From Candidatus Omnitrophota bacterium (GTDB lineage Bacteria > Omnitrophota > Gorgyraeia > Gygaellales > Profunditerraquicolaceae), in NCBI GenBank assembly GCA_028712255.1, contig JAQTQJ010000004.1:19956-83955 (forward strand): 64,000 nucleotides of DNA, in the 5' to 3' direction. The translations under genes were made by a program, and so were the position numbers. The notes under the pieces were generated by a model that saw only the letters and a program-made list of their open reading frames with translations, was not told where the DNA came from and searched no databases. This document shows positions 3,358 to 52,971 of the stretch, in pieces. The stretch's first letter is position 1. Every line of letters begins with the position of its first letter.

Positions 3358-3422
3358 CTTATTTTCCTCCTATTGATTTTGGTTTATTGTACCACCTCAA
3401 AAATTTACCCGCAACCTATTTC

Positions 3423-30592: not shown

Positions 30593-30635
30593 GTCATCCT
30601 GAGTCCGCCAATGCTTTAGTGGCGGACGAAGGATC
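30593..30635. repeat. Family A palindromic element variant (gtcatcctgagtccgccaatgctttagtggcggacgaaggatc), preceded by a cccgcgaaagcgg mini-hairpin
   Basis: Immediately 3-prime of the giant ORF stop; likely terminator function. Confidence 0.65.
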
Positions 30636-33600: not shown

Positions 33601-36600
33601 CAAAAACAAACATATAAGCGCGTTGGCTATTTTTAGTAATAATCTCAAGCCGGTCCACTCCTTCAAACAGCGTATATTTTCCTGTGCCAAAGAACCCGGT
33701 GAGTTCAATCTGGCCTGCGGCTGCCTTAGTAGATTTAGGAATAAGCAAGGCCACCTCTTCTAGGGCGCCGGTCCCATTATCCCGAGCTTCTTCAACATAC
33801 TCTTCTTGGCCTTGAGAGTTTTGCTGAAGGTAAAAATCTACTAATAGCTCCCCGTGTTTACCACGCGTAGCATCACGGGAATTTTGGGCAATCTCAGCAG
33901 TATAGGCGCCAGATTCTCTTTGCACAGTAGCATTAAGTAAAATATCCGATTCTAACTTTGCTGAAGACTGAGGAAGATTAAAAATACTTCTTACAAGTTG
34001 CTCAACGCTCATAACCTTATCCGCGAGCCCGTTCTTTGGCCTTTGCTGCTCAAGTTTAATAATCTGCGACAAGGCTACTGCCTCCTCCGGGCCTCTAGCA
34101 TTAAATTCATCCACACCCTCAGGCTCAGTCCTTTCCTTCTCTCTTAACTGCTCGACATTATTAGTTAAAAAAACCACAAAGGGGCGCGCTTTACCCAGCT
34201 TATGAGCATCCTTAAGTTGAAATGATCTTCGTTCGTTTGCGTCATCAAATAATTCAAAGGCGCTATACAAATCAGATAAATATTTATCTCTGGCTTCTGG
34301 TTTTAAGGCTAATAGCCTATTTATCTGATTGGCAAGGATATGAGCACCATCGGCGTGGTTTGCAGCTTGAAGAGAAACACCTGAGAGAAAATTTATTATT
34401 GATGTAAGCCTTTTAACTTCACCGGGAGTTGCTTCTTTTAGCGCAGCGATGAATTTGATTATTACGGGTAAGATATCTATCTTTTCCTGATAAGTACCCC
34501 AGCCATAAGCAAGGGCTTCAAAAAGTTGATTATCTATCTCAAGATGTTCGATGTTTAACTCTCTCTCCTTAGAAATGCAGATAAGGCTAAAAAACAAATC
34601 AAAATAAAAATCGTATTGATCCTCAATTCTCTCTTGAGAAAGCTGAGTTTTTCTTTCCTGAAGAAATCCGGGCAAAACCCGCAAAAATTGCTGCATCCTT
34701 CGGCTAAAAATATCAAAGGGCAATTCTTCAAGGTTCAAAGGCTGATTATTTTCGAGCGCTTGCCGGAATCTACGATTAATCTCATCTTCTTGGTCTAGAT
34801 AAAGTTCTTTAATCATTTCTCCGAGACTAAAGTCGGACCGATGCTTGAATTCTTCCGGGATTAAATCTAAGAATGGCTGATAAGCAGCCTGCGCCCTAGC
34901 AATAAAAGCGTCACGCTGAGAGAAAACATTATCTCTCCATTTTGCCATAACCTCTTGCGCGTTAATCTGTGCCTCTTCTGCCTGCGCTTGAACTTGAGCG
35001 GGTTGAGGCGCTTGAACAAATACCTTGCGCGGGTCCAGATACCTTATCTCTTGGGTCTGAGGATTAACAAACACAAAATATTCGCCGTTAACGTCTGCAC
35101 AAATAAAATTTTGAGGTACTTGTTTAGTAACACCCTTAATCTCGCCGAAATTATTAACCAAAAGAATGCGTCCATCATGAGTAGCTACAAGAATAAAGTT
35201 ATTATTTTGCTCTATAAAGAATTGATGCTCAAAAAAAAGCGAAGCAACAGGCCTTGACTTATCGGTTATCGCATATACTACTTCAAAACCTCTTTCTGCA
35301 TTTAAAAGATACCAAACCTTGCCACCTTCTAACGACACCACACGATCAGAGGGCTGTATTTGTTTAATATCTGTTAATAATCCGGAATCTAAATTTAAAA
35401 TACACACATCGTGATCACCAGTTGGTAAATAAAAACTACCTTCGTAATGAGAAAAATTACGAAAAATCAAATTATTACCTTGCAGCAAAATGCTCCCCAA
35501 TGGTTCTATGGGAGTACCTCTATTATATTCAAAACCAATTGAGGCCATTACTTCTCCCCAATGCGTCTTATAAGATTCTGGAATTCCATTTGTCTCTTCA
35601 TCCCAAATTGTTTTCTTCTCTAAATCGTATTCTTCCCAGTAACGTCGAGATATCGGGTCTGTTGACGGCCCTGCCTCAATAACTTTAAAAATATTTCGAT
35701 GAATAAATATACCCGGAGCCGCATATCCGCTGGCTCTACTAAATACATCGCACTCTTTAAGTCTCCCATCCTTATTTACTATCAGTAAATAAGTTTTGCC
35801 TCCGTCAGAAGTAACTCTTATTTTACCTCCTTCTTCAAGATCTCGATGTTTAGCTCTCATTGATATAAACATCTCATCTTTCTTTTCTTCTTTTTCATTT
35901 AACCATAAATAATCCAATTTATTGCCGGCCTTAAATATCGCCACTTCTCCGGAAGAATCAATTTCAATGTGGTCAGCGCCTTGGATTAAAAACCTGCCCT
36001 GCCCTAGACTAAATAAACTGTATTTGCCCTGCTTATCCTGGAGAATAACCACATCTGCCTTATCATCTACGCGAAATCCCAACGAATCATGCGTGATTAT
36101 TTGCGGCACCCTATTTGGGGCTGTGTTATAATCACTATATGTAAGGATGTTATTGCCTTGTTTATGCACCGAGAATCTTCCCGAAGCAGACAGAAAAACT
36201 TCTGACGATTCCGATTGCTCTACTCCTGAGGCGGTATCGAGCACAATATAATGCTTCTTATTTGGCGTTCCCAACGGCAACATATCGATTTTCTCTATAA
36301 CCACCAAATTACCCTTTATGGCTACAACAGAGTATGTAGTTCCTATTATGGGCCGTCCGTCAAACAACTGTTGATCTCCCTTATAAATGTAGAAAGAATC
36401 ATTAGATTCATACACAATAAAGGCATCGGTTGACCCTATTCGCTGAACACGAACATATGCAAATGGAGCGGCACGATTTTTATCTTCACGGTTAATAAGG
36501 CTAAAACCTCCGCCGGGTTGCGGAGTAATTATGATAGAATTCGGCGCATCCGCAGGCTTAGTCTCGCTAAATAACGCAGCTGGCTGCACTTGCGGATGAG

Positions 36601-39600
36601 CTAATGGCTCAGCCTCAGTAGATTCTACCTTTTCAACTTCCGCTAATACCTCTATAGCGGCATAATAATTTTCTAGCACCAGAACATTATTATTATTTAT
36701 GAGCTCAAGAATTTCTTTAAGGATTGCCTTGGCCTCAGCTATCCTATTTCCCTTAGCAAATGCCTCAGCTACAGAAACAAGAGCTTCACATTTCATCCGA
36801 ACTTCGTCTTCAGGAATCTTCCTGGTTATCTTCAAGGATTCATCTACTTCACCTATTTGGGCTAACCCTTGAGCTATATTAAATAATAAGCCTGGATAGA
36901 TAGACTTACGAACAACAGAATCCGTATTGAATTGCCCCAAAACTTCCAGTATGCTATTACATAATCGCCCTGCTTCTTTTATATCCCCATTCTCTATCAA
37001 TCCCTTAACTTCATGGGATAGGAACAATAATCTTTCTAGAACACTACCTAGATCCAACTGCTTGATCACAATATCAAATATTTCCTGCAATTTTTCTGGC
37101 CGGACTAAGAATTTATCTGTCCCGACGAAGCTCTTAAGTATGCTATCAAAAACCTGCCCTTTTCGGGTAACATCTGATATTTTGATTGTTATCGAGAGCG
37201 CTTTCTTAAACACGTTTTCTGCATCGGCAATTCTGATCATCTTAAAGTAGGCGGCGGCTACAATAGCCAAGGCTTCCGCCTTATCTTCAGGATCAGTAAG
37301 TTTCTCTGCGATACGTTGCGCTCTTTGCAATAAAGCATAAACTTCTTCTTCTGGTAATTTTGACTCAACTAATGCATTTGTAATATCTAATAACTCTGTT
37401 CCCTTAGACCATGAATTGGGAAACTTTTCTACATTAATGAGTATATCTTCAAATAACTTACCTGCCTCTCTTTGTCTTTCTAGTCTAGAAAATGCCTTGG
37501 CTATAATTGCAAGTATTCGTTCTTTATTATCGAGCTTTTCTACTGTGCCCTTAATCTCTTTTAGCAGAGTAAAAACCTCTTGGATGGTGATATCTGAGGC
37601 GATTAATGCTTCAATAATAGTAGAAATATTCTCACGCAGATCATTATGGCTCATGCCCTTTATCATATTCACTAATTTTGCAAACAAGGCATAAGTTCCA
37701 GCACTTCCTTGTAAACGAGCAGCTCCAGCCAACGCTTCAGTTATAGAAGCAATAGCTCTTGCTTTAGCAGAAGGATCTGGAATGTGGCCTGTAAAATCAA
37801 TAACTTCTTCAAATAGCCCTAACCTTTCAGTAGTACCCATAATAACACCGGCGGATTTATCCATTACCATAACAAAAGCTTTAACCGCTCTAACCATTAA
37901 CCAAGATCTACTACGATTATCATTCTCAAAAACATTTTGTGCCTCAAGATACGCCTTGCGCAGTGTAACAAAAGCTAGATCTTCCTGCCCTATTTCAGCT
38001 TCTGCTAAAGCTGTAGCTATAAGGGCATCACATCCGTCTGCATTCCGATCAGAAGCGTCCTTTTCTACTCTATAAAAATGATGCGCCTTATTCAGCGCTT
38101 CTTTTGCTTCATCAATTCTTCCTGTTTTAGCTAATCCTCTGGCTAATACGGCATAAGCGCGGCATCTTGAATAATCATCAGGCAAGGCCTGCGCAATGCC
38201 ACTGACTACTTTAACTAAATCTAAATCAGCTGGTTCTTTAGCCTGCGCGCCAGCTTCCTTTACGCCTTTTTGCATGCTCATTACAGGAGGCTCTCTTAAA
38301 AATTTATTAATTGCACCGGAATCAATTGCTCCGCTTACCTCTTTAACTTCTGGAATTGCTGTAACTGCCAAGTTATCTTTGGGCTTGGCATGCTCATAAC
38401 TTGTCACCACCTCTTCAGCGGTAATAATGTTTACTCTTTGCAACAGTGAGGAATATTCTTTTTCTTCTTGGGCCGTCAAACCGCCGCTTCTTTTCCTGCT
38501 CAATTCTAATAATCTCCTGCCCAACTCCTGCGGTATAATCACAAAACTTTCGGTTTTGATTACTGGCAGGCGTTCTTCTTTAGCCCAGGTATGCCATAAA
38601 CGGTCAAACTTAAAAAACCTTTTTGTGGCTTCTTGAGTAAAAGGAGCAATAATCAAAGGCAGGTGGCTAGCCCCTCCTAAAGTAACATACGGAATTATCT
38701 CTCCTCCGATTGCGTTTAAGAAACTAGAAAGCTGCCAATCAAATAATTTTCCATGCACAAAAAGTACATCCTTGCCTCCGAGTTCAAGTTTACCAAACTC
38801 TTTCTGCTGAGGCAGGACAATAACCCCCTGATGCCTTAACTCTTGTATTAGGCCGCTGATTACTTCCTGAACATTAGCGCGGATACCTTTTACCAAATGG
38901 CTGCTATTAGCATTGGAATTAATTAAGCCATCAAGGCCAACCATTATGGTATTAATATATTTTATTTTCTCGCGGGTAGTCAATTTGGGATGTTTTACAA
39001 TCTGCTTTATCGCGTACTCTACCCCTTGCTGGAAACTGGGAATCTTGCCGCCTAAATTAAGGCCCATGATAATATTATCCCGGGATTCGGAAACATCCAG
39101 CAAACCGCCTAATTCAAGCATTAAACCGCCTGTTACAGTAGCGCTATCCATAATCTCTCCGGGAATATCTACCGCTATAATTACCTCTCCATTCCTGGCA
39201 AAAGAAACCCGATGGGGAAGCGCTTCATCATGAACAACTTTTACTTTACCCAGTTCTCTATCTATATTTAACTCTAAAGACGCGGGGCGCTTTGTCCCTT
39301 CTTTGGGTACAAACATTTTAGCGAGAACCTCGGCATCCATGCCACTGCCATTATCAACAATAGTTATGGCATGCTCTGAAGTAATTACTTTTACAAACCT
39401 GCCCTGGCTTTCTTCTGGGGCATGAGCCTTGCTCCTCACCGGCACAACTACTCTTTTATTCTCAAACCCGTTAATCTTTACGGGTTCCCTCTGGCCGCTC
39501 ATCTGCGTATAAATATCCACTTCCCCTACAAACGGGAAACGCTGATGTATAGCGTCAGCTATTGCTCCTTGAGAATTACGATGCGTTTCATCACGCTGGC

Positions 39601-42600
39601 TATCCAAGCGCGGAATAGCCTCAACAGTAGACACTTTTACAATAGTGCCATGCTCTATAATTTGGCCGGCATATTCTTGGGCTAGATCCTGATATTCCTG
39701 CGCGGATATCTCTTTAATCTGAATATATCGAGCGCCTTGAGCATCTCTAGTTAGAGTAAGATGATAGGCTTTACTGTTTTCTTTACGTGTAAATATTTCT
39801 ATTTTATCTTCAGCCGAAGGCCCTAACCAATCAATAATCTGCTTTACGCCCTTACTAAATTGGCCTATGCGGAATCCATGCGCATCCAGCCCATTAGATA
39901 CTGCTTCGCATATACTCTGTATCCTTGCATTTTTGTTTTGGTCAACGATCTCTACATCTAATCTTACACCCTCAACAGGATATGTGTCTCCAATAATCAG
40001 GTCTACAACTTCTTTTGCATATCCATTACTGCCAAACCCCTCATATATAGCTTTATATGCAGCTTCTCCTGTAAGAGCAGTATTGAGTTTTAAAAGTTTT
40101 AAAATATCAGGTAATAATTCCCTTGGGATATTTCTTTCTGCCAACCGATACTGTGCCCAGATAAAACGATTAAGGTCGACTAAGTCTATGCTTGGCTGCA
40201 ATTGTATAGTTGCTCTAGCTTTATTCCAAGGCCAGCGTATGCTTTGCGCCCATTCCACTACCATCTTACCCAAATCTATCTGGCCAAATCTATCATAGAA
40301 AAACTGGGCCGGCCCAGAACCAATGACTACGCTCTTGCTACCAGTAGCCGCGCGCGAAGTTGAAGTTGCCAGCTGCGGCGCTGGCGTTACTTGAGCTACC
40401 TTTAACACCTGGCCTTTATTCGTAGTAGATATATACTTTTTGATCGCATCAAATAGATCGGATCCGTCAACATATTGAAGCAGGTTATTGATTGCGGACA
40501 CATTTTTGAAAAATAACCGGATCCTCAGCGGCGTATCATACCCTCGCTTTTCAAATTCTGCCATTAAGAGATTGGCAACACTTGAGCTGACATCTTTTCC
40601 TTGGATTAGATCAATAACTGTTGACCAAGAAAATATTTTCTTTAGGATTACTGACCGTATCTCTTGGCGAACCTTATCCTGATCGGTTTTATCCGGATTT
40701 ACTTGCAAAAGATAATTAATCAGCGCATCAACTTTACCCATAAAATTAAATTTCCAAGCCATACTTAATCGGGTAATTAGATCAATATCCACAGGTAATA
40801 ATTTAAGATAATAATTTCTATCGATTACTATTTTTTCATATGATCCGTCGGGTCTTTTATTAAGCATTAAATTACCGATATGAAAATCCGAATGCGCCAT
40901 ATATATGGTTTCTCCGGAATAGGAATCTGCAACCGGAGTCAACAAATGCGTCAAATAATCCCTGGCAAAATCAGCTAACGCCGCTTTTAGTTTTGAATCA
41001 CTCACTCTTCCTTTCTTATCCGTCTGGGCGGGAACAACCTGGTCGCCCCCATTTAATATCTTCTTAAGCGTATCCCCTGGAGCATATTCCTCAACTTTTA
41101 TTCTGTATCCATATGGCTGCAAAACACGCGATGTGGTTATTGAGCCTGCCGCAGGATAAAATACAGCTGAAGAAAATATCGCATCGTCACTTAAGAAAAA
41201 GCCATCATTAATGTCATCTTTGACCCACAACCTTAAAGTACCCAACAATCGTTCTGCCATAATGTATTGCCGTTCATTTTTAGGGTCTTTAGCAATTAAA
41301 TCTTTCACTGTTTTTTGCATTTGTTCTGCGCGTTCGCCTAATAGAACCTCAAGATTCGGAGATATAATTTTTACCACCTGTCTAGCAACACTCCCATCCG
41401 GTTGTGTCACTGACACTAAATACGCGGTATTAATGGAGCCCCCGCCTAACACTTTTTCTATCCTAAGATGTATTTTTAAATACTCCATTGCTTCAACCTG
41501 TGCAGTATAAAATGCTTTAAAACTTGCCAAGGTTTCTGTGAACACCTCTTCAAACATTGATGCGGTACGTTCATTATATTCAGTAAGCTTTTTATCCCGT
41601 AAATTTTGGGCAAATAAAGATAAGAATACGCGTTGATCGTAATCTTGAAGCGGGCTGTCATTTAAATTAAAACGGAATCCCAGAAAATTAATTGCTTCTG
41701 CCCGGAACTGTTTAAGATATTCAGTTAGCGGTATTGTTTGGCCTGCTTCCATCAGGCGCTTTGACCATTCAGCATAAGCAGCGGATTTAATCCACGCCCC
41801 ATCCCGGACTGTTTGCATACGCTCAATTTCAACTGCCAGCGACTGAAACAAATTACTCTTTACCAGAGTAGAGGCGTTATCATACACATTACTGAACTCT
41901 TCCTTATATTCTTGCGGGATAGCGTAATACTGGCCAAATACTTGTAGGAACCGGACACCGAGCGCGCCAATTGCTTGCCCTGCGGTAGCAATGAATTTAC
42001 CTAACCTTATAGATAATGCTTTAGTTTTTCCAACTGTAGTTTTAAATTGAAATACCGCATTCTCCTGGCGATAATATTCCCGCTCTTTTGCTTGAAACTT
42101 AAGCAGCTGCGGGTTGATCATCGATTCGCCGGGATTAAATACCGCATACACTGCCTCAATCTCAGTATCGGGAATATATGACGGGTTATCCTTCAGAAAC
42201 GCAAAGAATTGTTCTGCTGTTTTACCATACTCCTGCGTTACGTACTTCTTATATTTTTGATATTGCTTGTGCTCTTTTAATTGTCTATCATAACCATGTT
42301 CTTTCCACCGTTTACGATCATAACTGCTTCGGCCATATGATTTCTGTAGCTCTTCCAAGCTCAAAAGATTTTGTGTCGGCCGATAAATTTCATTCTGAAA
42401 ACGCTCATAAGCAGGTAACCACCTCTGTAACCTGGAATCCCGCACAAATGGATCAGCTGGCTGTGTAAACCACGACATAACTGCGGCGCGGTGTGTATAC
42501 GCAGGATCACCGACCAACGCATGTTCCGCAAGAACTTTTGATAAGAAAAGTGTTAGCTCGCTATTGTCCACATTCGCTAAAAATGCCACTAGAATATTTT

Positions 42601-45600
42601 GCATAAGTTGTAATTCTTCTGGTTTCATACCTGAAACATTCCCTAAAATCCATGCGCTGAGTTTCTCCAAATTTTCTGCCCGGAAAAACACAGCGTTATA
42701 TTTTGACAAAAGCCTCTGGAAGAAAACAAAACGCTCAAGTTGTGTCATGGAATAAAAACGGTTCATCCAATCATCAACGCGTTGAACATCCGTAATAGCG
42801 CTAACATCAACGTCGTCTCTCTGTTGCGCTTCTGCCCGAATCTTAGTAATCGTCTCCATGATTACCGATGCAAGATAATCATCATCTCCTGTTACCATTG
42901 CCTTCATAAAATCCATCGCCTGTTTTTCACCAATCTTCATCTCCTCAAGTGTTTTATCCAATGCCATAAAACCACCCAGCATCACTTTTCCATCAAGGCT
43001 ATTGCCCTTCTCGTAAACACTCACTAATTGTTGATATTGTTGATATTCGGCATCCGTATCCACGCGCTCCTGGCGGAAATAATACAACGCATCAAAATTT
43101 CCATATCCTAACTCATTTGATACAAACGTGTAGGCATCGGAAAATTTCCCTTCCTTGATTATGCGGTGGCGCAGATTCGTCAGAAGCTCACGTTTCTGCC
43201 TTCCCGGAGGAGAATAACGCTCAATAAAATAATACGCTTCTTCCAAATCTTTCCAAGAACTCACTGACAATGACGCTGCGTAAAGTTGCAAGCTTACTAA
43301 TTTTGCTTCAATTACAGGGTGAAGAAAATTAAGTTCATCTGAATCCTTGCCATAATAATTAATTAATACTTCCTGTCCAAGAAACCGGCTACGGCCTCCA
43401 ATAGCAGAAATAGATCCTTGATTTTTTATCTTTCTTGCCGATATCTCTGCATTAGACAATGCAAATGATGCATGGATACTATCGGTAAGCGCCTGCAATT
43501 GTTGAATCGATAATAAACTAAGCTTATTTATCAGTGTTGCTTGCGCAGCTTCTGCATCAAAATCGGTAAGCGCTGCATTGGCGAGTGAATTATCATTAAC
43601 CGCATCGGCATAAATAAACTGTCTTGCTTTTCGGACAGTAGTATATTCTAATCTTTTCTTTTTTGCTTGCCCGCTGACAGATTGCGCAATCGCAGCAAGC
43701 TCTTCACGTTGCGGGTTTTGCTCCCATAACAGGTAATATTTTTGGTCCATTTGACGCAAAATAACCTCATAATCTTCTTCATTAACCTTTGATTCTTCCC
43801 TGCTCTTACTTTCTACGCAAAGAATATCTCTTCGAATAGCGCTCTCAATAAAAAATGCTTCGCTCAATGATGCCTTCTGATATGCAATAAACTCGCTACT
43901 TACTAAGAACTGTTCCATCGCCTCCCGGTAGAACACGGCATAAGCCTGAGCTTGTGCTCTATCTGTACTCATCCGGCTAATGCCTTCTACGCTAATTGGC
44001 AACCATAATCGCCCGTCCTTATCTTGAAAATGATTTGCTGTGAATTTTTGTATATACATTCGCAAGAATCCAACTCTATCCCCTTGAGCCATATATTCAT
44101 AAAGCCCTATCTGCTTTCCATACTCCGGTAATTTTGCTTGCTGCAATACCCGGTTAGTCGCTTCCATTCTGAGCCCATAACTTAACGGGTTTACGCTTGA
44201 AAATATATCAAATAGCGACGAACTAAGCCATAAAGTTAGATCCACATACGTCATACGGCCAAACCTGTTATGAATTTCTTCTCCAAGTTCGGTGTCATTT
44301 GGTTGGCGATTAGAATAGTCTTTGGCTTCTTGCAAATCCTGAGTATTACGAATCCATTCGGCGGTAAAGGTAACTAATTGTCCCAATTTCTTCTTCTGTG
44401 CTTCTGATAACCGGCTTGAGAATTGCTCGTAAGAATCAAAATCCTTACGGAGCGCTGCTTCTTCATTAAAAATGTCATGCCACAATGACCCTACAAAATA
44501 CCATTGATGCGGATTTTCGCTCCCAACCAGTCTCTGTTTTCGTATATCCTCATTGGCCCTCTTTGGATAATAAACAAAAGAAGGATCAAGGATATTCTTT
44601 TCAACATACTTCTTGCTTGAAATATACTGCTCGAGAAATATTCTATATGTTTCAAAGTCTTTTTCAGAATCAAAAGAATTTATTAAATTTGAATAAAACA
44701 CGGAGAAATAATACTGCCGAAGCTGCCTTAAATAATCAGAAAGCCATATCCGTGAGCCACCAAACGCAGGATTGGAAATCTTCCCGCTTGCATTAAATGC
44801 TAGTGTAATCGCAGTAATCCTCTTGCCAAAACCATCAAGGCTCAACAGTGAGCCATCAAAAGTAAAGAAATTGTAGACCTCTTGCCACTCCTGAACATTA
44901 GGAGATTCTGTTTGGATATTTAGTAATCGCATAAAGTAATCTCCCAGATAGGGGGCCATATCGTAGCCATCAGGATTATCATTGCGAGAGGAAAGCAGTG
45001 ACAAGGCCAAATATCGAACTACCTCATCTGTACTCTCGGCTGGAAGGCCATCCGCGCATGCAGTATTCTCTTTCAAGAGATACTGGCTGATATATACAAG
45101 TTTCTGCCAACTAAGATAGTAAGATGCCGCATTAAACGGTTGCCTCTGTTGTGTTCCGATAAATTCTTCGATGATGAATTTATATTGCTCTTGCGAAGAT
45201 AGTGTTTTTTGGGTCAACTCCCCCCAAGTATCTTTAAAATCCTGAAATGAAGATTGTTTTAAGTACGTTAAATAATCAAGGACAATAAAATACCCTTCCG
45301 GAGATTTCCAGTACCCCTCTAACGGATGAAAGGCGTTAACATGCGTCAAATCCTGTCCCTGTAAATTCATGCGCAGAAGCGTCGTTCGATCAAATTGACT
45401 TCCATGCGTCCAGTCAGAGCTCCCCTTCACAAAGCTTTCCAGCTTGTTAGATAAATAAATAACCGCGAGTTGATTAAATCCAATACCGTTGATTAACGAA
45501 GGAGAAACTGCATCCGCCTTATATTCCCCAAGACGTTTATCTAAAGGGGTACCGACGTTATTCCAGGTTAAATAATTATCCTGATAATGTGACAATTCAT

Positions 45601-47419
45601 GCGCGAGCACCGCGGCAATTTCATCAGAAAAATCCAGGCCATCAAGTAATTTTTGCGTAATCACCACAGAGCCGTCAGGAAGGCAATACGCATTGACTAC
45701 CGGCTCAAGAGATATGTATACTTTTATATCCGTACGTAGCTGTTTGTGCCCTGCCCGATCGTTGAGCCTAGTGGTAATCTTGGTAATCGTATCCGATAAA
45801 AACGCATACTGTTTGCTGTTGGCATCTGCGCCAGGATCCAAAATTCCGTAGCGCTCGTTTACTAAACCCAAAAACTTTTGGAATTCTTGTTCATCTCGTA
45901 GGACAGTAGGATCACTTACTGTAAAATGGTAATCCTTCGGCAAAATTGCGTATGTTTGCGCAACTTTATCATATTGTTTCTTAACGGCATCGAATACTGG
46001 TATCGATGATAGGGGATTTTGTGATGATGAAGCATTCTTCTTAATTGACTTAACGGCATTTGAAATACCTGCCTGAAACTTCTGGAGTAATGATTGAGCT
46101 TGTTTTGTTGGTCCTGGTTGGGGAATATTCTCAAGATTAGGGGATGGTTCTATTCCTTTGGCCTCAGCAGCAGCCACGCTTGGGGCACTCTCCCCTACAC
46201 CTGCTACTACGTCTATCTCTGAACCTCGAACATTCACTTCGGCTAGATCAGAATTGCTTACACTGGGATCACCGACAGTGGGAGCTATAGTAGTTATTGT
46301 TCCTGCCGGGTTAACAGAAGTGGCTTGTCCAAAAGCAGGAATTACCTGGCCGATGGCAAAGCCTCCTGAAAAGTAACTCCTGATACTCTGGCCAAAAGGG
46401 GTACTGATGGGTTCTTGAATGTTGTATTGGCCTTTAGCAAAGTTCTCCTTGTAGGCATTGAAATAGGTAGCTACGGAGTAGGGGATTTGGATTTTAAGGT
46501 TAGTGAGATCTTTAGAATCAATAGTTGGGTAGGGTAGGTTTAAACCTGCCCTACCACCTTGAGTTGTTGGGGACAGTCCCCTATGCCTGGCTTTGAACCA
46601 TTGGGCAAGAATTAGTGAGTAGTAGACCTGTCTTAGGGGAGCATAACGCTTGGCATTGTTGATTTCTTTGGTTAACCTGGGAATAATATCCTCTCTTATG
46701 ATTTGAGCGGAGTAGGCGTTGAGCTGCCTTTCTCTTACGTCTTTGAAAGAGTAGACAACATTATCTTTTAGATAGTCTTGCTCAAGCATTACTTTAAGGG
46801 TTGCCTTGTAGATATAGGCTGAATCTACTGATTCACGGATAATGATCTCATCCGGGACGATCCAGGGGCGGGTTAGCGTGGGAATGGTTACGTTCTGGGT
46901 GCCATAGAGCTCTTGGGCGCGTGTATAGAGTTTATCCCAGTACTCTTTGCCTTGAGGAGTAGAAGGATTAGTGGCATCAGCAGTGTCTTTTTTAAGCTGG
47001 AGGTCTGCTTCCAGGAGGATCTTGCCTATTTGAGTTTGAGCTAGGAGTGGATCAATGATATCATCGGGTAAATCAGGGCGAAGGTTAACCCAAAAGGTGC
47101 CATTGGGTAGAGCGATACCTGTAAAGAAGTAGTTGAGCAGGTCTTTGGTAGTTGATTCAAGTCCAGGGGTCCTCTTATCCTTAAACTGGTCTCCTTTGTC
47201 TAAAAGAAGTTTAAAGTTGTTGTTTAGGCTATCATAAGAGATAGATCTTAGGTGTAGGGGACGGAATTTATCGGGAGATAGAGCATTGTGCAGGGAATTA
47301 AGAGTGCCGGCGATATTTAACTCTGCATTGGCTACTTGGGCAAAGCCGGTTTGTTGCAATAAAAGAGATACGCACAGCAGAATAGAAAGAATCTTAAAGG
47401 TTTTGGATTTTTTCATCAT
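30635..47419 (-). CDS. Giant secreted multidomain protein (5594 aa, single ORF): signal peptide, M48-like HExxH peptidase, UbiB/ABC1-like kinase, GHKL ATPase module(s), TPR-like repeats, beta-rich region, second HExxH motif
   Basis: Uninterrupted 16,785-nt minus-strand reading frame; individual motifs located by residue counting and verified against the DNA (HELSH at 45587..45601, EIAQNSRDA at 33869..33895, HELGH at 32285..32299). Confidence 0.9.
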   Translation of the reverse strand: MMKKSKTFKILSILLCVSLLLQQTGFAQVANAELNIAGTLNSLHNALSPDKFRPLHLRSISYDSLNNNFKLLLDKGDQFKDKRTPGLESTTKDLLNYFFTGIALPNGTFWVNLRPDLPDDIIDPLLAQTQIGKILLEADLQLKKDTADATNPSTPQGKEYWDKLYTRAQELYGTQNVTIPTLTRPWIVPDEIIIRESVDSAYIYKATLKVMLEQDYLKDNVVYSFKDVRERQLNAYSAQIIREDIIPRLTKEINNAKRYAPLRQVYYSLILAQWFKARHRGLSPTTQGGRAGLNLPYPTIDSKDLTNLKIQIPYSVATYFNAYKENFAKGQYNIQEPISTPFGQSIRSYFSGGFAIGQVIPAFGQATSVNPAGTITTIAPTVGDPSVSNSDLAEVNVRGSEIDVVAGVGESAPSVAAAEAKGIEPSPNLENIPQPGPTKQAQSLLQKFQAGISNAVKSIKKNASSSQNPLSSIPVFDAVKKQYDKVAQTYAILPKDYHFTVSDPTVLRDEQEFQKFLGLVNERYGILDPGADANSKQYAFLSDTITKITTRLNDRAGHKQLRTDIKVYISLEPVVNAYCLPDGSVVITQKLLDGLDFSDEIAAVLAHELSHYQDNYLTWNNVGTPLDKRLGEYKADAVSPSLINGIGFNQLAVIYLSNKLESFVKGSSDWTHGSQFDRTTLLRMNLQGQDLTHVNAFHPLEGYWKSPEGYFIVLDYLTYLKQSSFQDFKDTWGELTQKTLSSQEQYKFIIEEFIGTQQRQPFNAASYYLSWQKLVYISQYLLKENTACADGLPAESTDEVVRYLALSLLSSRNDNPDGYDMAPYLGDYFMRLLNIQTESPNVQEWQEVYNFFTFDGSLLSLDGFGKRITAITLAFNASGKISNPAFGGSRIWLSDYLRQLRQYYFSVFYSNLINSFDSEKDFETYRIFLEQYISSKKYVEKNILDPSFVYYPKRANEDIRKQRLVGSENPHQWYFVGSLWHDIFNEEAALRKDFDSYEQFSSRLSEAQKKKLGQLVTFTAEWIRNTQDLQEAKDYSNRQPNDTELGEEIHNRFGRMTYVDLTLWLSSSLFDIFSSVNPLSYGLRMEATNRVLQQAKLPEYGKQIGLYEYMAQGDRVGFLRMYIQKFTANHFQDKDGRLWLPISVEGISRMSTDRAQAQAYAVFYREAMEQFLVSSEFIAYQKASLSEAFFIESAIRRDILCVESKSREESKVNEEDYEVILRQMDQKYYLLWEQNPQREELAAIAQSVSGQAKKKRLEYTTVRKARQFIYADAVNDNSLANAALTDFDAEAAQATLINKLSLLSIQQLQALTDSIHASFALSNAEISARKIKNQGSISAIGGRSRFLGQEVLINYYGKDSDELNFLHPVIEAKLVSLQLYAASLSVSSWKDLEEAYYFIERYSPPGRQKRELLTNLRHRIIKEGKFSDAYTFVSNELGYGNFDALYYFRQERVDTDAEYQQYQQLVSVYEKGNSLDGKVMLGGFMALDKTLEEMKIGEKQAMDFMKAMVTGDDDYLASVIMETITKIRAEAQQRDDVDVSAITDVQRVDDWMNRFYSMTQLERFVFFQRLLSKYNAVFFRAENLEKLSAWILGNVSGMKPEELQLMQNILVAFLANVDNSELTLFLSKVLAEHALVGDPAYTHRAAVMSWFTQPADPFVRDSRLQRWLPAYERFQNEIYRPTQNLLSLEELQKSYGRSSYDRKRWKEHGYDRQLKEHKQYQKYKKYVTQEYGKTAEQFFAFLKDNPSYIPDTEIEAVYAVFNPGESMINPQLLKFQAKEREYYRQENAVFQFKTTVGKTKALSIRLGKFIATAGQAIGALGVRFLQVFGQYYAIPQEYKEEFSNVYDNASTLVKSNLFQSLAVEIERMQTVRDGAWIKSAAYAEWSKRLMEAGQTIPLTEYLKQFRAEAINFLGFRFNLNDSPLQDYDQRVFLSLFAQNLRDKKLTEYNERTASMFEEVFTETLASFKAFYTAQVEAMEYLKIHLRIEKVLGGGSINTAYLVSVTQPDGSVARQVVKIISPNLEVLLGERAEQMQKTVKDLIAKDPKNERQYIMAERLLGTLRLWVKDDINDGFFLSDDAIFSSAVFYPAAGSITTSRVLQPYGYRIKVEEYAPGDTLKKILNGGDQVVPAQTDKKGRVSDSKLKAALADFARDYLTHLLTPVADSYSGETIYMAHSDFHIGNLMLNKRPDGSYEKIVIDRNYYLKLLPVDIDLITRLSMAWKFNFMGKVDALINYLLQVNPDKTDQDKVRQEIRSVILKKIFSWSTVIDLIQGKDVSSSVANLLMAEFEKRGYDTPLRIRLFFKNVSAINNLLQYVDGSDLFDAIKKYISTTNKGQVLKVAQVTPAPQLATSTSRAATGSKSVVIGSGPAQFFYDRFGQIDLGKMVVEWAQSIRWPWNKARATIQLQPSIDLVDLNRFIWAQYRLAERNIPRELLPDILKLLKLNTALTGEAAYKAIYEGFGSNGYAKEVVDLIIGDTYPVEGVRLDVEIVDQNKNARIQSICEAVSNGLDAHGFRIGQFSKGVKQIIDWLGPSAEDKIEIFTRKENSKAYHLTLTRDAQGARYIQIKEISAQEYQDLAQEYAGQIIEHGTIVKVSTVEAIPRLDSQRDETHRNSQGAIADAIHQRFPFVGEVDIYTQMSGQREPVKINGFENKRVVVPVRSKAHAPEESQGRFVKVITSEHAITIVDNGSGMDAEVLAKMFVPKEGTKRPASLELNIDRELGKVKVVHDEALPHRVSFARNGEVIIAVDIPGEIMDSATVTGGLMLELGGLLDVSESRDNIIMGLNLGGKIPSFQQGVEYAIKQIVKHPKLTTREKIKYINTIMVGLDGLINSNANSSHLVKGIRANVQEVISGLIQELRHQGVIVLPQQKEFGKLELGGKDVLFVHGKLFDWQLSSFLNAIGGEIIPYVTLGGASHLPLIIAPFTQEATKRFFKFDRLWHTWAKEERLPVIKTESFVIIPQELGRRLLELSRKRSGGLTAQEEKEYSSLLQRVNIITAEEVVTSYEHAKPKDNLAVTAIPEVKEVSGAIDSGAINKFLREPPVMSMQKGVKEAGAQAKEPADLDLVKVVSGIAQALPDDYSRCRAYAVLARGLAKTGRIDEAKEALNKAHHFYRVEKDASDRNADGCDALIATALAEAEIGQEDLAFVTLRKAYLEAQNVFENDNRSRSWLMVRAVKAFVMVMDKSAGVIMGTTERLGLFEEVIDFTGHIPDPSAKARAIASITEALAGAARLQGSAGTYALFAKLVNMIKGMSHNDLRENISTIIEALIASDITIQEVFTLLKEIKGTVEKLDNKERILAIIAKAFSRLERQREAGKLFEDILINVEKFPNSWSKGTELLDITNALVESKLPEEEVYALLQRAQRIAEKLTDPEDKAEALAIVAAAYFKMIRIADAENVFKKALSITIKISDVTRKGQVFDSILKSFVGTDKFLVRPEKLQEIFDIVIKQLDLGSVLERLLFLSHEVKGLIENGDIKEAGRLCNSILEVLGQFNTDSVVRKSIYPGLLFNIAQGLAQIGEVDESLKITRKIPEDEVRMKCEALVSVAEAFAKGNRIAEAKAILKEILELINNNNVLVLENYYAAIEVLAEVEKVESTEAEPLAHPQVQPAALFSETKPADAPNSIIITPQPGGGFSLINREDKNRAAPFAYVRVQRIGSTDAFIVYESNDSFYIYKGDQQLFDGRPIIGTTYSVVAIKGNLVVIEKIDMLPLGTPNKKHYIVLDTASGVEQSESSEVFLSASGRFSVHKQGNNILTYSDYNTAPNRVPQIITHDSLGFRVDDKADVVILQDKQGKYSLFSLGQGRFLIQGADHIEIDSSGEVAIFKAGNKLDYLWLNEKEEKKDEMFISMRAKHRDLEEGGKIRVTSDGGKTYLLIVNKDGRLKECDVFSRASGYAAPGIFIHRNIFKVIEAGPSTDPISRRYWEEYDLEKKTIWDEETNGIPESYKTHWGEVMASIGFEYNRGTPIEPLGSILLQGNNLIFRNFSHYEGSFYLPTGDHDVCILNLDSGLLTDIKQIQPSDRVVSLEGGKVWYLLNAERGFEVVYAITDKSRPVASLFFEHQFFIEQNNNFILVATHDGRILLVNNFGEIKGVTKQVPQNFICADVNGEYFVFVNPQTQEIRYLDPRKVFVQAPQPAQVQAQAEEAQINAQEVMAKWRDNVFSQRDAFIARAQAAYQPFLDLIPEEFKHRSDFSLGEMIKELYLDQEDEINRRFRQALENNQPLNLEELPFDIFSRRMQQFLRVLPGFLQERKTQLSQERIEDQYDFYFDLFFSLICISKERELNIEHLEIDNQLFEALAYGWGTYQEKIDILPVIIKFIAALKEATPGEVKRLTSIINFLSGVSLQAANHADGAHILANQINRLLALKPEARDKYLSDLYSAFELFDDANERRSFQLKDAHKLGKARPFVVFLTNNVEQLREKERTEPEGVDEFNARGPEEAVALSQIIKLEQQRPKNGLADKVMSVEQLVRSIFNLPQSSAKLESDILLNATVQRESGAYTAEIAQNSRDATRGKHGELLVDFYLQQNSQGQEEYVEEARDNGTGALEEVALLIPKSTKAAAGQIELTGFFGTGKYTLFEGVDRLEIITKNSQRAYMFVFAVIRDSSGRPTAVKLTRIRKITDPKVAQGVTVRRIKSLDNTIPELDQMLSQRSWKIFVGLAQDEHFKVFFIDHEGKKQQLAVEKDILAEVEFKAVRPQEKDETNFGPLRIISAKDMPLQIVDKAGLRVSEMKEEYLALIPSVLRRHIQELGIIIQIPLPLIRNRSAFEHENEFLPQIQRYVAVAFFQAIAYKALSQSSPQFVFEGFPLDWETNDSYWQSINPASDRWILGVANDINVGRIERISEEALRGLLTEPGKLDKEKKFTKLILLLEVFSNRQNSDSKVSLLTRRLAIQEETNKAILGAAKLQRELLMSGGFNLGRLPSLSDIPFSGNKVMQALGIALGHDQMQRPERYILNPNDYNDNERELVTLAWGIARNFGIEQIILLNDEVRFAGAFKIYQGKHTMFLARSIASEIGRAATNSTAIDSATDTIVHELGHLLEEFMRQDNAGRFWQEGYIAHLSDFTHDAVGTFAEAMKYAAAVSLNNGDGSVSLEMDSGETEPSPSSLNPTSPDTGINLASGTMPNGLNNTISQGDGSVEIQVYINNGEIYYEVRKNKELVKTIRGDDPKKAFKEAKQVAAEALAGSNEATEPSHITSEERDKTLRRYADTQRSIDKDDEENLGLPNGLELIISGESPEIIRFKEEIFSMLAEVGFDRNNPEHLEILSQEYAKTLKEYIEGMRQGVRTAKYFGLDAKTSFSPDEIKDAWRDITKLIVDKIKMKMKAEALRKVFPRASKEIFREWDSYGDMLGKLLIDDTQEGIFAFYEKAGRPPVPIAWAMISKDVEGRVTRVLSALDINRSQKGYKSLKASILADLKEYLENEIAKPKTTGPINGSTSSSSNSAFAPGGIDSSTTLTIDSRQGEKLGGIDFRFLPIVIQSIDSLKAGIRSLPQSTLQGINLTQEWSDIERLVNSGITPSAERLKEYLAASCFKGSLDQDTNRIVSCIADILRMEEESCCLTDPTLKDILVVLGSGRSGEELRIAFNK
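32088..32140. repeat. 19-bp perfect inverted repeat inside the giant ORF (ggggacggttctgtttctc ... gagaaacagaaccgtcccc), in frame, encoding GDGSVSLEMDSGETEPSP
   Basis: Seen directly; same GGGGACGGTTCT core as the family B terminator hairpins. Confidence 0.85.
32240..32512 (-). other. Giant protein: second HExxH zincin-like motif (TIVHELGHLLEEF, aa ~5040)
   Basis: HELGH verified in the DNA at 32285..32299; surrounding fold unassigned (DUF4157-like possibility). Confidence 0.3.
33560..33952 (-). other. Giant protein: Hsp90/MORC/sacsin-like GHKL ATPase module 2 (aa ~4490-4620)
   Basis: N-box EIAQNSRDA (ExxxNxxDA), G1-box ARDNGTGA (DxGxG) 35 aa later, G2-box GFFGTGKYTLF 28 aa later; order and spacing canonical for the Bergerat fold. 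Confidence 0.6.
35000..36472 (-). other. Giant protein: beta-strand-rich region, possible beta-propeller (aa ~3650-4140)
   Basis: Recurrent short hydrophobic strands with G/D/N turns (ILVATHDGRILLVNNFGEI, YLLIVNKDGRL); composition-based. Confidence 0.25.
36620..38182 (-). other. Giant protein: TPR/HEAT-like alpha-helical repeat region (aa ~3080-3600)
   Basis: Repeated amphipathic helix pairs with A/L/E/K-rich patterning (RIDEAKEALNKA, RIAEAKAILKEI); composition-based. Confidence 0.35.
39260..39922 (-). other. Giant protein: tentative GHKL-like ATPase module 1 (aa ~2500-2720)
   Basis: N-box-like CEAVSNGLDAH and a strong G1-box AITIVDNGSGMDAEVLAKMF, but the spacing (~180 aa) is atypical. Confidence 0.3.
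40640..41542 (-). other. Giant protein: UbiB/ABC1-like atypical kinase module (aa ~1960-2260)
   Basis: GGGSINTAYLVSV (ASIAQVH-like), ARQVVKIISP (VAVKVQRP-like), HSDFHIGNLM (HADPHPGN-like catalytic motif), VIDRNYY. Confidence 0.5.
45320..45802 (-). other. Giant protein: M48-family zinc metallopeptidase-like module (aa ~540-700)
   Basis: VYISLEPVVNAYCLPDGSVVITQKLLDGLDFSDEIAAVLAHELSHY matches the M48 (HtpX/Ste24/BepA) core around HExxH. Confidence 0.65.
47324..47419 (-). other. Giant protein: Sec signal peptide (aa 1-32, MMKKSKTFKILSILLCVSLLLQQTGFAQVANA|E)
   Basis: Basic N-region, hydrophobic core, AxA cleavage motif. Confidence 0.7.
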
Positions 47420-47516
47420 TTTGCCTACCGGTTTATTAACTTACTATAAGTATGCTATATAGGTAAGTAAAAACAAGGGTAAAATAAGGAAAAAAGAAAG
47501 GGTTTTCAGAATGATA

Positions 47517-47566
47517 AAAAGGGGACGTTTCCCTCTAAGGCTATAGGGAAACGTCCCCTTTTATTG
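47517..47566. terminator. Intrinsic terminator hairpin downstream of secA (aaaaggggacgtttccct-ctaaggctat-agggaaacgtcccctttt)
   Basis: Perfect 18-bp stem flanked by A/T tracts. Confidence 0.75.
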
Positions 47567-51819: not shown

Positions 51820-52893
51820 TTAAGTTTTCTTTATCCCTTTGTAAGCCAACATAAATTCTTCGCGGCTATCTGCAGCAAGCGCAGCATCCTCTACGCTTAT
51901 TTTGCCGTCATGAGTTAATTTAACCAAAGATTGAGTGAACGACTGCATACCGAATACTGCACCATCTTCAATGTAATGAGGAATCTCCCAAGTCTTTCCT
52001 TCACGAATCAGGCGGCTGATAGTGGGAGTTAGAAGCATAATCTCATAAGCAGGTACGCGGCCAGTCCCATGTTTAACAGGCACCAAACGCAATGAGATTA
52101 CTCCTTTTAGCAGCCAGGCCAATTGATTCCTTACCTCCTGATGCTGGTGAGGAGGAAAAAAGTTAATCAATCTTTCTATGGATTGAGAAGCATTAATTGT
52201 ATGCAAAGTACTCAAAACTAAAACTACAGTTTCAGCAGCAGCCATAGCGCTAGATACGGTTTCAGAATCTCGAATATTAACGATAAACATCACATCCGGG
52301 CTCTGTAAGGTAAAAGCACGCAAAGCAGTCTGATAACTCGGAACATCTATCCCCAGCTCCCGCTGATTTATAATTGACTGCTTATCTTCAAAAGTGAATT
52401 CAATCGGCTCTTCAGCAGTCAAAACATGTTTTCTGCAGTTATTATTAATATATTCAATCATACTGGCAATCGTCGTAGATTTTCCGCTGCCCATACTTCC
52501 GGTCAACAATACTAAACCGCGGGTTTCCAGCGATAGTTTTGTTAACACCTCAGTGGGAAGATTTAACTCTTCAAAGTTAGCTATATTATTGCGCACATTC
52601 CTGATAACAATGGATGGCCAATTTCTTTGCGTAAATACGCTAACCCGGAAACGCCGGTCAAATTCCTCCAGGTATACGGCAAAATCTACATCCAGGGATT
52701 TTCTAAAAATTTCAAGCTGTTTGGTATTAGACAGTTGTTCGGTGGCAAGCATAACATCCTCTACGGTTAAAATCCTGGTATCCATAGAGATTATTTTACC
52801 GTCGATTCTAAGGCGGGGTACGCCTCCGGCTCGGTAAAAAAGATCTGAAGCGTTCCTACCCACCATCTCTCTCATTAACCCTTTAATATCCAT
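51820..52893 (-). CDS. pilT: Type IV pilus retraction ATPase (PilT/PilU family)
   Basis: Walker A GSMGSGKSTT, PilT-family layout; 357 aa. Confidence 0.7.
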   Translation of the reverse strand: MDIKGLMREMVGRNASDLFYRAGGVPRLRIDGKIISMDTRILTVEDVMLATEQLSNTKQLEIFRKSLDVDFAVYLEEFDRRFRVSVFTQRNWPSIVIRNVRNNIANFEELNLPTEVLTKLSLETRGLVLLTGSMGSGKSTTIASMIEYINNNCRKHVLTAEEPIEFTFEDKQSIINQRELGIDVPSYQTALRAFTLQSPDVMFIVNIRDSETVSSAMAAAETVVLVLSTLHTINASQSIERLINFFPPHQHQEVRNQLAWLLKGVISLRLVPVKHGTGRVPAYEIMLLTPTISRLIREGKTWEIPHYIEDGAVFGMQSFTQSLVKLTHDGKISVEDAALAADSREEFMLAYKGIKKT

Positions 52894-52971
52894 TCTCCCT
52901 CCTCGCCACCAGGCGACACTAACCCAATTCCTTTAAGGGCCAGGTGTTTATAAGCGCACGATGACTAAATA

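Follow-up and report, generated by a model that had tools for sequence, protein, structure and literature searches.

A divergent UbiB/ABC1-type domain, probably acting together with an M48 peptidase, in a giant protein of Candidatus Omnitrophota

Residues ~1803-2320 of a 5,594-aa protein of Candidatus Omnitrophota probably constitute a divergent UbiB/ABC1 member of the protein-kinase-like superfamily, which closes the C-terminal end of an M48 peptidase cassette and which, through its ATP cycle, would work in concert with the M48 peptidase or control it. The protein is encoded by the giant open reading frame at 30635..47419 on the minus strand of the window (the whole 64,000-nucleotide stretch of DNA that was analysed) and is identical to NCBI MDD5108482.1, a MAG-derived entry publicly labelled only as 'M48 family metalloprotease'. 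Judged from its sequence, the ATP site looks intact, with a GGGS loop, the beta3 Lys2017, Asp2178, Asn2183, and the metal-binding Asp2200. Rfam and tRNA scans of the 64-kb window were empty.

A preliminary description of this DNA placed a UbiB/ABC1-like kinase signature at 40640-41542 on the basis of four motif strings. All of them are found in the minus-strand translation of the giant frame, and the plus strand of this segment contains many stops throughout. Re-translation located GGGSINTAYLVSV at aa 1992-2004 (41408-41446), ARQVVKIISP at aa 2012-2021 (41357-41386, with Lys2017 at 41369-41371), HSDFHIGNLM at aa 2176-2185 (40865-40894), and VIDRNYY at aa 2198-2204 (40808-40828), all on the minus strand. 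The UbiB profile alignment, the ABC1 matches of homologues, and the fold search all bear out that these are, in order, the G-loop, the beta3 Lys, the catalytic loop, and the Asp equivalent to that of DFG, as the preliminary description had assigned them. The segment contains the motifs but is too narrow for the domain. The kinase-like core covers aa 1985-2320 (40460..41467, minus strand), as delimited by HMMER family search, alignments, the AF2 model, Foldseek, and hhalign; within it lie the GGGS loop (41435-41446), the catalytic loop HSDFHIGN (40871-40894), and Asp2200-Arg2201 (40817-40822), and its helical C-lobe ends in a conserved PL..RL..KN motif. The N-terminal helical extension, referred to here as the GQ block, was placed by hhalign at aa 1803-1869 (41813..42013, minus strand) and is helical in the AF2 model. 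Between this block and beta1, the window copy has ~100 additional helical residues (aa ~1870-1969, 41513..41812, minus strand), an insertion that it shares with the homologues P0001 and P0002 only.

The UbiB/ABC1 identification is well supported, although the putative membership of the window copy is transitive, via homologues and the family profile. The window copy itself gives no match to Pfam PF03109 (ABC1) even at E<=10, no kinase-type Pfam model reaches its threshold there (EcKL and APH fall below the cut-off), and a phmmer search of the domain against PDB returned noise only. PF03109 is matched by 20 of the 31 aligned homologues (best E 1.6e-17), and in P0012 and P0016 an ABC1 match above the gathering cut-off is accompanied by an N-terminal Peptidase_M48. 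When the family profile was compared with PDB sequences, the top match was the ABC1-type Rv3197 (5yjz, E 2.6e-5). The alignment of the family with Escherichia coli UbiB in hhalign reached a probability of 94.2% (E 1.2e-7) over 263 colinear columns, including the KxGQ region, against 24% over 17 columns for the control SrkA and 0.3% for the control WaaP. In E. coli UbiB, the counterparts of Lys2017, HSDFHIGN, and Asp2200 with their surroundings are VIKVIRPD, HADMHPGN, and IDCG, and the GQ block was colinear with UbiB residues ~58-100, where R1823-F-L-Q1826 aligned on K-F-G-Q, with Gly changed to Leu and Lys to Arg. AlphaFold run from the single sequence gave a pLDDT of only 38; once the alignment was supplied, the AF2 model reached a pLDDT of 82.5 and a pTM of 0.83. 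The Foldseek search with this model supports a bilobal protein-kinase-like fold, as the preliminary description had supposed, nearest to solved UbiB-family structures, which took ranks 1-6 and 9 (MSMEG_1954, COQ8A, ADCK3), with Rv3197 at rank 32. The TM-scores were modest (0.47-0.56 on target) and the rmsd high because of the additional helices. In the model, only ~8 residues lead from D2200 to the next helix, which leaves no activation loop.

When 1.84 billion representative proteins were scanned in full with HMMER, 249 of them matched at E<=1e-3, of which 111 also passed E<=1e-10; the motif set is far beyond chance. The carriers are Omnitrophota and Patescibacteria-type MAGs, along with MAGs labelled 'uncultured Gammaproteobacteria', and the named homologues that were checked are called 'M48 family metalloprotease', 'ATP-binding protein', or 'hypothetical protein', most of the family being unnamed. 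Conservation within the family peaks at the motif residues. All 126 aligned sequences have G1994, D2178, G2182, N2183, D2200, and R2201; at K2017, 110 of them have K and 14 have R. In the G-G-G-S loop, the three glycines occur in 120/126, 115/126, and 126/126 sequences and the serine in 125/126, whereas in the GQ block, aligned for 84 sequences, R is kept in 81 and Q1826 in all. Since this (near-)invariance of the active-site residues stands at an overall identity of 25-35% across the 126 sequences, selection on the active site is indicated. The catalytic residues, of which the preliminary description singled out the Lys and Asp, are all kept in the window copy (Lys2017, Asp2178, Asn2183, Asp2200).

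The domain is part of a larger unit. In the window protein, the cassette spans aa ~471-2334 (40418..46009, minus strand) and is kept as one unit in homologues; its order is an M48 zinc metalloprotease (HExxH...ExxAD), ~1,100-1,400 helical residues, and the UbiB-like domain at the C-terminal end, with a total length of ~1,500-1,900 residues. The Peptidase M48 domain (aa 546-640, 45500..45784, minus strand) matches Pfam PF01435 with E 2.4e-11, scoring 44.3 bits where the cut-off is 20.3, and lies ~1,570 residues upstream of the kinase-like domain. Its zinc-site motifs, confirmed by re-translation, are HELSH (aa 607-611, 45587-45601) and EYKAD (aa 632-636, 45512-45526), both on the minus strand. 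The H, E, H, and E..D of these motifs are invariant in stand-alone homologues, the profile of which matches the M48 structure 3c37. HExxH precedes the catalytic loop by 900-1,900 aa (median 1,287 aa) in 101/105 representatives with enough upstream sequence, and all giant homologues keep the colinear order of M48, middle, GQ, and kinase blocks. This obligate pairing of the kinase-like domain with an upstream M48 domain was absent from the preliminary description. The closest copy of the cassette is in P0001 (61-70% identity; 61% for residues 1247-3109), and residues 4295-6213 of P0002 are 54% identical. The cassette is inserted at differing positions in several giant proteins, and Patescibacteria-type MAGs also have it free-standing, in proteins of ~1,550 aa. 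Among ~40 of the 96 representatives of 1,400-1,850 aa that were inspected, the N-termini of stand-alone cassettes are hydrophilic and lack a signal peptide, with P0050 as the one exception; this points to a cytoplasmic setting as the ancestral one. The N-terminal sequences of flanking frames revealed no conserved operon partner of stand-alone cassettes, the neighbours appearing unrelated and mostly housekeeping. No description of M48-UbiB fusions, nor of ABC1 in Patescibacteria or Omnitrophota, was found in the literature.

The N-terminus of the giant protein, MMKKSKTFKILSILLCVSLLLQQTGFAQVANA|E, has the n/h/c arrangement of a Sec signal peptide (predicted from sequence features and a hydropathy scan for aa 1-33, 47321..47419, minus strand), with a K-rich n-region, ILSILLCVSLLL as h-region, and AQVANA|E at the cleavage end. 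It is the sole hydrophobic segment across the 5,594 aa. The localisation cues differ between the giant protein, with its predicted Sec-type signal peptide, and the stand-alone cassette, which has none. The preliminary description suggested ATP-dependent activity outside the cytoplasm or delivery into another cell. A domain in need of ATP would find little of it at the place to which such a signal peptide leads. A functional link to secA, suggested by adjacency, was rejected because a terminator hairpin separates the two genes and the Omnitrophota homologue P0043 has no secA neighbour. It was also proposed that an ATPase and peptidases accompany the kinase-like domain. The M48 peptidase is confirmed, but the ATPase amounts to DNGxG motifs (the GHKL-like DNGSGMD and DNGTG...GFFGTG) and non-significant matches to the Hsp90 N-domain (E 0.04-0.3). 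Neither Pfam nor NCBIfam gave a match to a GHKL/Hsp90-type ATPase in the giant protein, and a search with the region of the first motif, DNGSGMD, gave no match. PADLOC defence models did not match the giant protein either.

UbiB/ABC1/ADCK proteins (E. coli UbiB; human COQ8A/ADCK3, PDB 4PED/5I35), which provide the leading fold-search matches and the strongest profile alignment, share with the domain the bilobal kinase-like fold, a beta3 Lys with a Pro-containing motif behind it (VxKxxNPN here, VAVKVQRP there), the HxDxHxGN catalytic loop, the metal-binding Asp, and a C-lobe tail made up of helices only; neither has an activation loop. The helical GQ block aligns on their KxGQ region, with the Gln invariant. 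The identification made in the preliminary description holds, but hallmark motifs of ABC1 proteins differ: the Ala-rich loop (AAAS), which replaces the Gly-rich loop as a feature of ABC1 proteins (PMC8956952), is absent from the clade and GGGS is present instead, RxLQ stands for KxGQ, and DRN for DFG. Furthermore, W..DI.D..F...D is found where the known family has its ExD..EA.N region, there is no TM anchor, fusion to the M48 protease is obligate, and the window copy carries the helical insertion and stays below the Pfam ABC1 threshold. The best PDB profile match and the best Foldseek matches (E 7e-7) come from Rv3197/MABP-1 (5YJZ-5YK2) and MSMEG_1954 (7CY2/7CYR/7CZ2). Rv3197 was described as a soluble UbiB-like, slow ATPase with a helical accessory domain and bound macrolide (PMC6208485). 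As in the domain considered here, it lacks a TM region and has extra helical elements around the UbiB-like core. However, Rv3197 and MSMEG_1954 are stand-alone proteins of ~450 aa with no protease partner, Rv3197 is a homodimer, and its macrolide binding is unlike anything established for the window domain. In plants, ABC1K kinases and the M48 protease PGM48 occur together on plastoglobules, which are lipid particles, but as separate proteins (PMC8956952), whereas here the two domains lie on one polypeptide. The plant link is one of co-residence, not of fusion, and the ABC1Ks retain the AAAS loop and KxGQ. We know of no lipid-droplet context in Omnitrophota or Patescibacteria.

Several other readings of the domain have to be weighed against that of a UbiB/ABC1 member working with its M48 neighbour. 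One of them, an unlikely one, is that the giant protein is exported via Sec and a further system into a prey or host, where the domain would serve, beside M48, as a protein or lipid kinase on the target's ATP. The N-terminal signal peptide, shared with P0043, fits such an effector, as do the proposals that Omnitrophota giant proteins act on other cells (10.1101/2023.11.21.568195; 10.64898/2026.06.07.730766) and the finding that an Ala-to-Gly change in the loop of ADCK3 unlocks protein kinase activity (PMC8956952), GGGS being natural in this clade. However, the inspected stand-alone cassettes, P0050 excepted, lack a signal peptide; P0001, the closest cassette copy, lacks one as well; and no link to dedicated secretion or delivery genes is in evidence, secA lying behind the terminator hairpin. 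It is improbable that the domain is an inactive pseudokinase, a structural or binding module only, within a giant scaffold. UbiB activities are notoriously weak (10.1101/149823), DRN is found in place of DFG, and several residues of the window copy are not those of the family consensus, namely at HSDFH (HSDFHIGN against HSDPHxGN), S2020 (N in the consensus), K2119 (N), and H2158 (Q); yet the copy keeps all nucleotide-binding and phosphoryl-transfer residues, the beta3 Lys, the catalytic loop, and the metal-binding Asp among them.

The catalytic loop is also where a small-molecule kinase of the APH, choline-kinase, or EcKL type, not related to UbiB, would find its support, and HSDxHxGN does resemble HGDxHxxN of APH(9), EcKL, and choline kinases, including the Asp that follows it. 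EcKL (E 0.004) and APH (E 0.07-0.15) are the sole Pfam signals of the window copy, APH is touched by 8/31 homologues, and the APH(9) structure 3i0o matches the family profile with E 4.4e-5. Such a relationship is nevertheless very improbable: the scores are all below the family thresholds (17.0 bits against 22 for EcKL, 12-13 bits against 23.2 for APH), the likeness is limited to ~40-90 residues around HxDxHxGN and includes no GQ extension, and 17 columns align with the APH-like SrkA but 263 with UbiB, the UbiB-specific N-terminal extension included. The majority Pfam match is ABC1, and UbiB structures head the fold search. Finally, an ordinary UbiB of quinone biosynthesis is scarcely credible, even though the best-characterised relatives, UbiB and COQ8, act in the ubiquinone pathway (10.1101/149823). 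The domain is embedded in a giant protein and fused to M48 in nearly all representatives, its hallmark motifs are altered, a hydropathy scan shows no C-terminal TM helices, and no quinone-pathway Pfam match was found among the frames scanned in the window. The carriers, Omnitrophota and Patescibacteria, are to our knowledge generally regarded as lacking ubiquinone.

For the preferred reading, that of a UbiB/ABC1 member coupled to M48, a mechanism may be proposed. The domain would bind Mg/Mn-ATP and then hydrolyse it or transfer phosphate in cis, as for COQ8/UbiB and Rv3197, and the RxLQ extension would gate the cleft. The nucleotide cycle may be coupled to the M48 protease on the same chain or may regulate it, which the invariant fusion suggests, and the substrate is probably membrane-associated or hydrophobic. 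M48 proteases generally act at membranes, and E. coli UbiB has reportedly been analysed for copurifying lipids. In COQ8/UbiB, the Gln of KxGQ binds a candidate water nucleophile, and the ATPase is activated by lipids and phenols, for COQ8 by cardiolipin membranes and phenolic compounds resembling CoQ precursors (10.1101/149823).

For UbiB/ABC1 proteins, the roles of kinase, ATPase, and lipid extractor are still in contention, and the clade offers a natural experiment, as it combines a Gly-rich loop, a proposed RxLQ gate, an invariant M48 partner, and lineages not expected to make ubiquinone. From the obligate fusion, a functional link between an ABC1-type domain and an M48 protease is predicted, which echoes the co-residence in plant plastoglobules. 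For annotation, ~250 representative proteins contain a kinase-like domain that has so far gone unrecognised, and for the Omnitrophota giants one mobile cassette is identified, reused at different positions in different giant proteins. A bolder and rather doubtful proposal is that the cassette is a self-contained, nucleotide-gated protease module of ultra-small symbiotic or predatory Patescibacteria and Omnitrophota, with the UbiB domain, Gly-rich by nature in its loop, as a true phosphotransferase, exported in the signal-peptide-bearing giants and acting in or on another cell. Were this so, the UbiB family would gain its first member that has a defined partner at the protein level and works outside quinone metabolism, and nature would offer a parallel to the ADCK3 mutants in which an engineered A-to-G change confers kinase activity.

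All four strings from which a UbiB/ABC1-like kinase signature had been proposed, GGGSINTAYLVSV (aa 1992-2004), ARQVVKIISP (aa 2012-2021), HSDFHIGNLM (aa 2176-2185) and VIDRNYY (aa 2198-2204), were found in the minus-strand translation, and their coordinates were verified by a second translation. They belong to a single minus-strand ORF (30635..47419; 5,594 aa) that contains the flagged coordinates, where the plus strand is stop-rich. Since the strings are present in this ORF and the N-terminus (MMKKSKTFKILSILLCVSLLLQQTGFAQVANA followed by E) has a Sec signal-peptide layout, the observation made in the preliminary description was confirmed. The interval it gave lies inside a real domain but is too small: the kinase-like core occupies 40460-41467 (aa 1985-2320) and a conserved N-terminal extension, the GQ block, 41813-42013 (aa 1803-1869), both on the minus strand. 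The giant protein corresponds to MDD5108482.1 of a Candidatus Omnitrophota MAG (the window SecA is 100% identical to MDD5108483.1) and is named "M48 family metalloprotease", so public records leave the kinase-like domain unannotated. The window's genes are those of an ordinary diderm chromosome and include Lnt, an LpxL-type acyltransferase, LptE, BamD, MurJ, UvrC, RF and SecA.

On the giant protein, Pfam found only Peptidase_M48 (aa 546-615, E 2.4e-11) and TPRs; in the kinase region of the window copy EcKL (17 bits, cut-off 22) and APH were sub-threshold, ABC1 gave no match, and NCBIfam and PADLOC scans yielded nothing further. A word-indexed homology search returned zero relatives. Scanning 1.84 billion representative proteins in full with HMMER brought up 249 at E<=1e-3, of which 111 reach E<=1e-10 and 9 reach E<=1e-30. 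The domain cannot be recognised from curated models alone. The motif residues form the most conserved columns when 126 copies are aligned. G1994, W2065, D2178, G2182, N2183, D2200 and R2201 are invariant, and the position of K2017 holds Lys in 110 copies and Arg in 14, so the catalytic residues are conserved. These relatives and this pattern of conservation indicate a real domain under selection, with a nucleotide and metal site that reads as intact.

The UbiB/ABC1 relationship is supported by four independent tests: Pfam matches of homologues, a profile match in the PDB, hhalign and a fold search. Of 31 aligned members, 20 matched PF03109 (best E 1.6e-17) and 8 matched APH; the homologues P0012 (27.2 bits) and P0016 (24.1 bits) exceed the Pfam ABC1 cut-off of 22.9 bits. 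Against PDB sequences, the top match of the family profile was the ABC1-type Rv3197 (5yjz, E 2.6e-5), with 7cy2, an "ABC1 family protein", also matched; APH(9) and CK2 matches were confined to the surroundings of the catalytic loop. Alignment of the family with E. coli UbiB (from NC_000913.3) by hhalign gave 94.2% probability (E 1.2e-7) over 263 colinear columns; two other E. coli kinase-like proteins, run as controls with the same profile, scored 24% over 17 columns (SrkA) and 0.3% (WaaP). An AlphaFold model computed from the alignment (pLDDT 82.5, pTM 0.83) predicts the kinase-like fold that the preliminary description anticipated; the single-sequence model was not usable. In Foldseek, MSMEG_1954, COQ8A and ADCK3 fill ranks 1-6 and 9, Rv3197 stands at rank 32, and eukaryotic protein kinases rank behind. 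The order of predicted secondary structure agrees with a UbiB-type kinase-like domain: N-terminal helices, three N-lobe strands (G-loop and Lys), long helices, two more strands and a hinge, followed by the catalytic-loop and Asp strands and an all-helical tail. The hhalign alignment also reaches the UbiB-defining extension, where the family block GALGVRFLQllGQ...P.E....F..vYD aligns on a 33-residue UbiB stretch, with R-F-L-Q on K-F-G-Q. This extension is conserved by sequence, Arg1823 being kept in 81 of 84 sequences and Gln1826 in all 84. In the window copy, P0001 and P0002 (two giant homologues), a helical insertion of ~100 aa (aa ~1870-1969) separates the GQ block from beta1.

In BLAST and phmmer, residues ~471-2334 behave as one cassette, which shares 61% identity with P0001 (5,426 aa; residues 1247-3109) and 54% with the C-terminus of P0002 (6,217 aa; residues 4295-6213). 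Every giant homologue keeps the same linear order and similar spacing of M48, a middle block (~aa 1354-1640), the GQ block and the kinase core. Among the best 150 representatives, 96 are 1,400-1,850 aa long; in these, M48 sits around residue 100-170 and the kinase-like domain is C-terminal. HExxH precedes the catalytic loop by 900-1,900 aa in 101 of the 105 representatives with enough upstream sequence (median 1,287 aa; 1,569 aa in the window protein). The window M48 site looks intact (HELSH, EYKAD), the equivalent positions are invariant in stand-alone proteins, and the profile of these matches the M48 structure 3c37. By these comparisons, the kinase-like domain is obligately fused to an apparently active M48 protease. 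The ~1,100 residues between the two matched nothing known. Many ~1,550-aa stand-alone proteins (P0016, P0020, P0027, P0032, P0036, P0042 and others) carry a conserved DDEFxN...L.PL at residues ~30-60, before M48, which the window protein does not have.

The published hallmarks of ABC1 proteins (PMC8956952) are an Ala-rich loop (AAAS), a KxGQ domain and the lack of an activation loop. In the model a helix starts only ~8 residues past Asp2200, thus an activation loop is absent. In this clade the Ala-rich loop is exchanged for GGGS, KxGQ for RxLQ, DFG for DRN and the ExD..EA.N region for W..DI.D..F...D, and, unlike canonical UbiB, the clade has no TM helix. With one hallmark missing, another present only in variant form and the window copy failing the curated model, we file the clade, on its sequences, as a divergent UbiB relative and a new subfamily, not an ordinary member. 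Given these departures, a canonical UbiB of the quinone pathway is hardly credible, despite the homology. An APH/EcKL-type kinase would suit the sub-threshold Pfam hits and the eight APH matches, and it is very improbable beside the PF03109, hhalign and Foldseek results. An inactive pseudokinase could be suspected from DRN; the invariant D2178, N2183 and D2200 make it very improbable.

It can also be considered that the domain is an exported effector kinase, a reading compatible with the UbiB identification. The giant N-terminus predicts Sec export, its signal-peptide region is the sole hydrophobic stretch of the whole protein, and hydrophobic leaders also occur in P0043, P0002, P0003 and P0136. 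Omnitrophota giant proteins have been proposed to act in another cell (10.1101/2023.11.21.568195). The ~40 inspected stand-alone N-termini are hydrophilic, with the sole exception of P0050, and P0001, bearer of the closest cassette, has no leader. The giant gene lies 153 bp downstream of secA (47573-50491), and a strong G+C-rich hairpin with a T-run (AAAGGGGACGTTTCCC...GGGAAACGTCCCCTTTTT; 47515-47555, minus strand) stands just past the secA stop. This terminator hairpin makes separate transcription of the giant gene probable. Nor is the adjacency conserved: P0043 has different neighbours. The ancestral setting of the cassette was, on this sequence evidence, probably cytoplasmic, and the effector reading is unlikely. 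Upstream of RF and SecA, the minus strand encodes a PilT/T2SSE-type ATPase (51820-52893), a family-2 glycosyltransferase (52972-54465) and a PEGA-domain protein (54458-55483), within 51820-55483; two CitMHS/ArsB-type transporter paralogues lie <13 kb apart (11099-12367 and 24037-25428, minus strand).

P0043 (Omnitrophota, 5,745 aa) and the window protein have in common the signal-peptide N-terminus, the position of the kinase-like domain, a C-terminal domain and an N-domain (aa 5-387, E 8.5e-130). Past the signal peptide, the N-terminal domain of the window protein (46160-47320, aa 34-420, minus strand) shows 54-59% identity to that of P0043 and also matches P0106; the last ~130 aa (30638-31030, aa 5463-5594, minus strand; GGIDFRFLPIV...) share 40% identity with the P0043 C-terminus. 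These conserved end-caps may be targeting or sorting modules. Giant or partial carriers are labelled Omnitrophota (P0043, P0006, P0009, P0010), Paceibacterota (P0001) and Kerfeldbacteria (P0013). GTDB species genomes that contain stand-alone cassettes bear the titles Curtiss-, Davies- and Levyibacteria, Patescibacteria, and "uncultured Gammaproteobacteria" MAGs. The latter loci (L001, L004, L008, L010, L012) have 36-41% GC and housekeeping-like neighbours, resembling Patescibacteria loci L002, L007 and L013, and their labels may be misassignments. Judged from N-terminal sequences of flanking ORFs, neighbours of stand-alone cassettes appear unrelated and mostly housekeeping, with no recurring partner gene.

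The other activities attributed to the giant protein fared less well. Of the "peptidases", M48 stands, and the second HExxH (HELGHLLEE; 32285-32299, aa 5041-5045, minus strand), near the C-terminal quarter, is backed by neither Pfam nor NCBIfam and may represent another metalloprotease-like site of unclassified type. The "ATPase" was based on two GHKL/Hsp90-like motifs in otherwise unannotated minus-strand regions and was not upheld: DNGSGMD (39335-39355, aa 2689-2695) gave nothing in the match search, and the Hsp90 N-domain matches around DNGTG...GFFGTG (33680-33781, aa 4547-4580) are non-significant (E 0.04-0.3). A mid-protein TPR-like repeat region (37181-38161, aa ~3087-3413, minus strand) scored just below or near the cut-offs of Pfam TPR_12, TPR_2 and TPR_19.

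The UbiB/ABC1-like identification is supported; the functional role and any action after export are putative. The literature searched, including the Omnitrophota giant-protein papers, makes no mention of ABC1, UbiB or M48 in this context. By analogy with COQ8/UbiB and Rv3197, the models for ATP cycling (10.1101/149823; PMC6208485), the domain would bind Mg/Mn-ATP and cycle it via hydrolysis or cis-phosphorylation, and the N-terminal extension would gate the cleft. The KxGQ Gln of COQ8 holds the water proposed as the nucleophile of ATP hydrolysis. KxGQ-domain mutants with raised autophosphorylation lose ATPase activity (10.1101/149823); ADCK3 gains protein kinase activity when an Ala of its loop is changed to Gly (PMC8956952). 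With its natural Gly-rich loop, this clade could thus either hydrolyse ATP or transfer phosphate. In plastoglobules, ABC1K kinases and the M48 protease PGM48 co-reside (PMC8956952), which gives an independent hint that both activities go together. It is proposed that in this family the nucleotide cycle would control or assist the M48 protease fused to the domain, with a membrane or a hydrophobic ligand as the probable setting.
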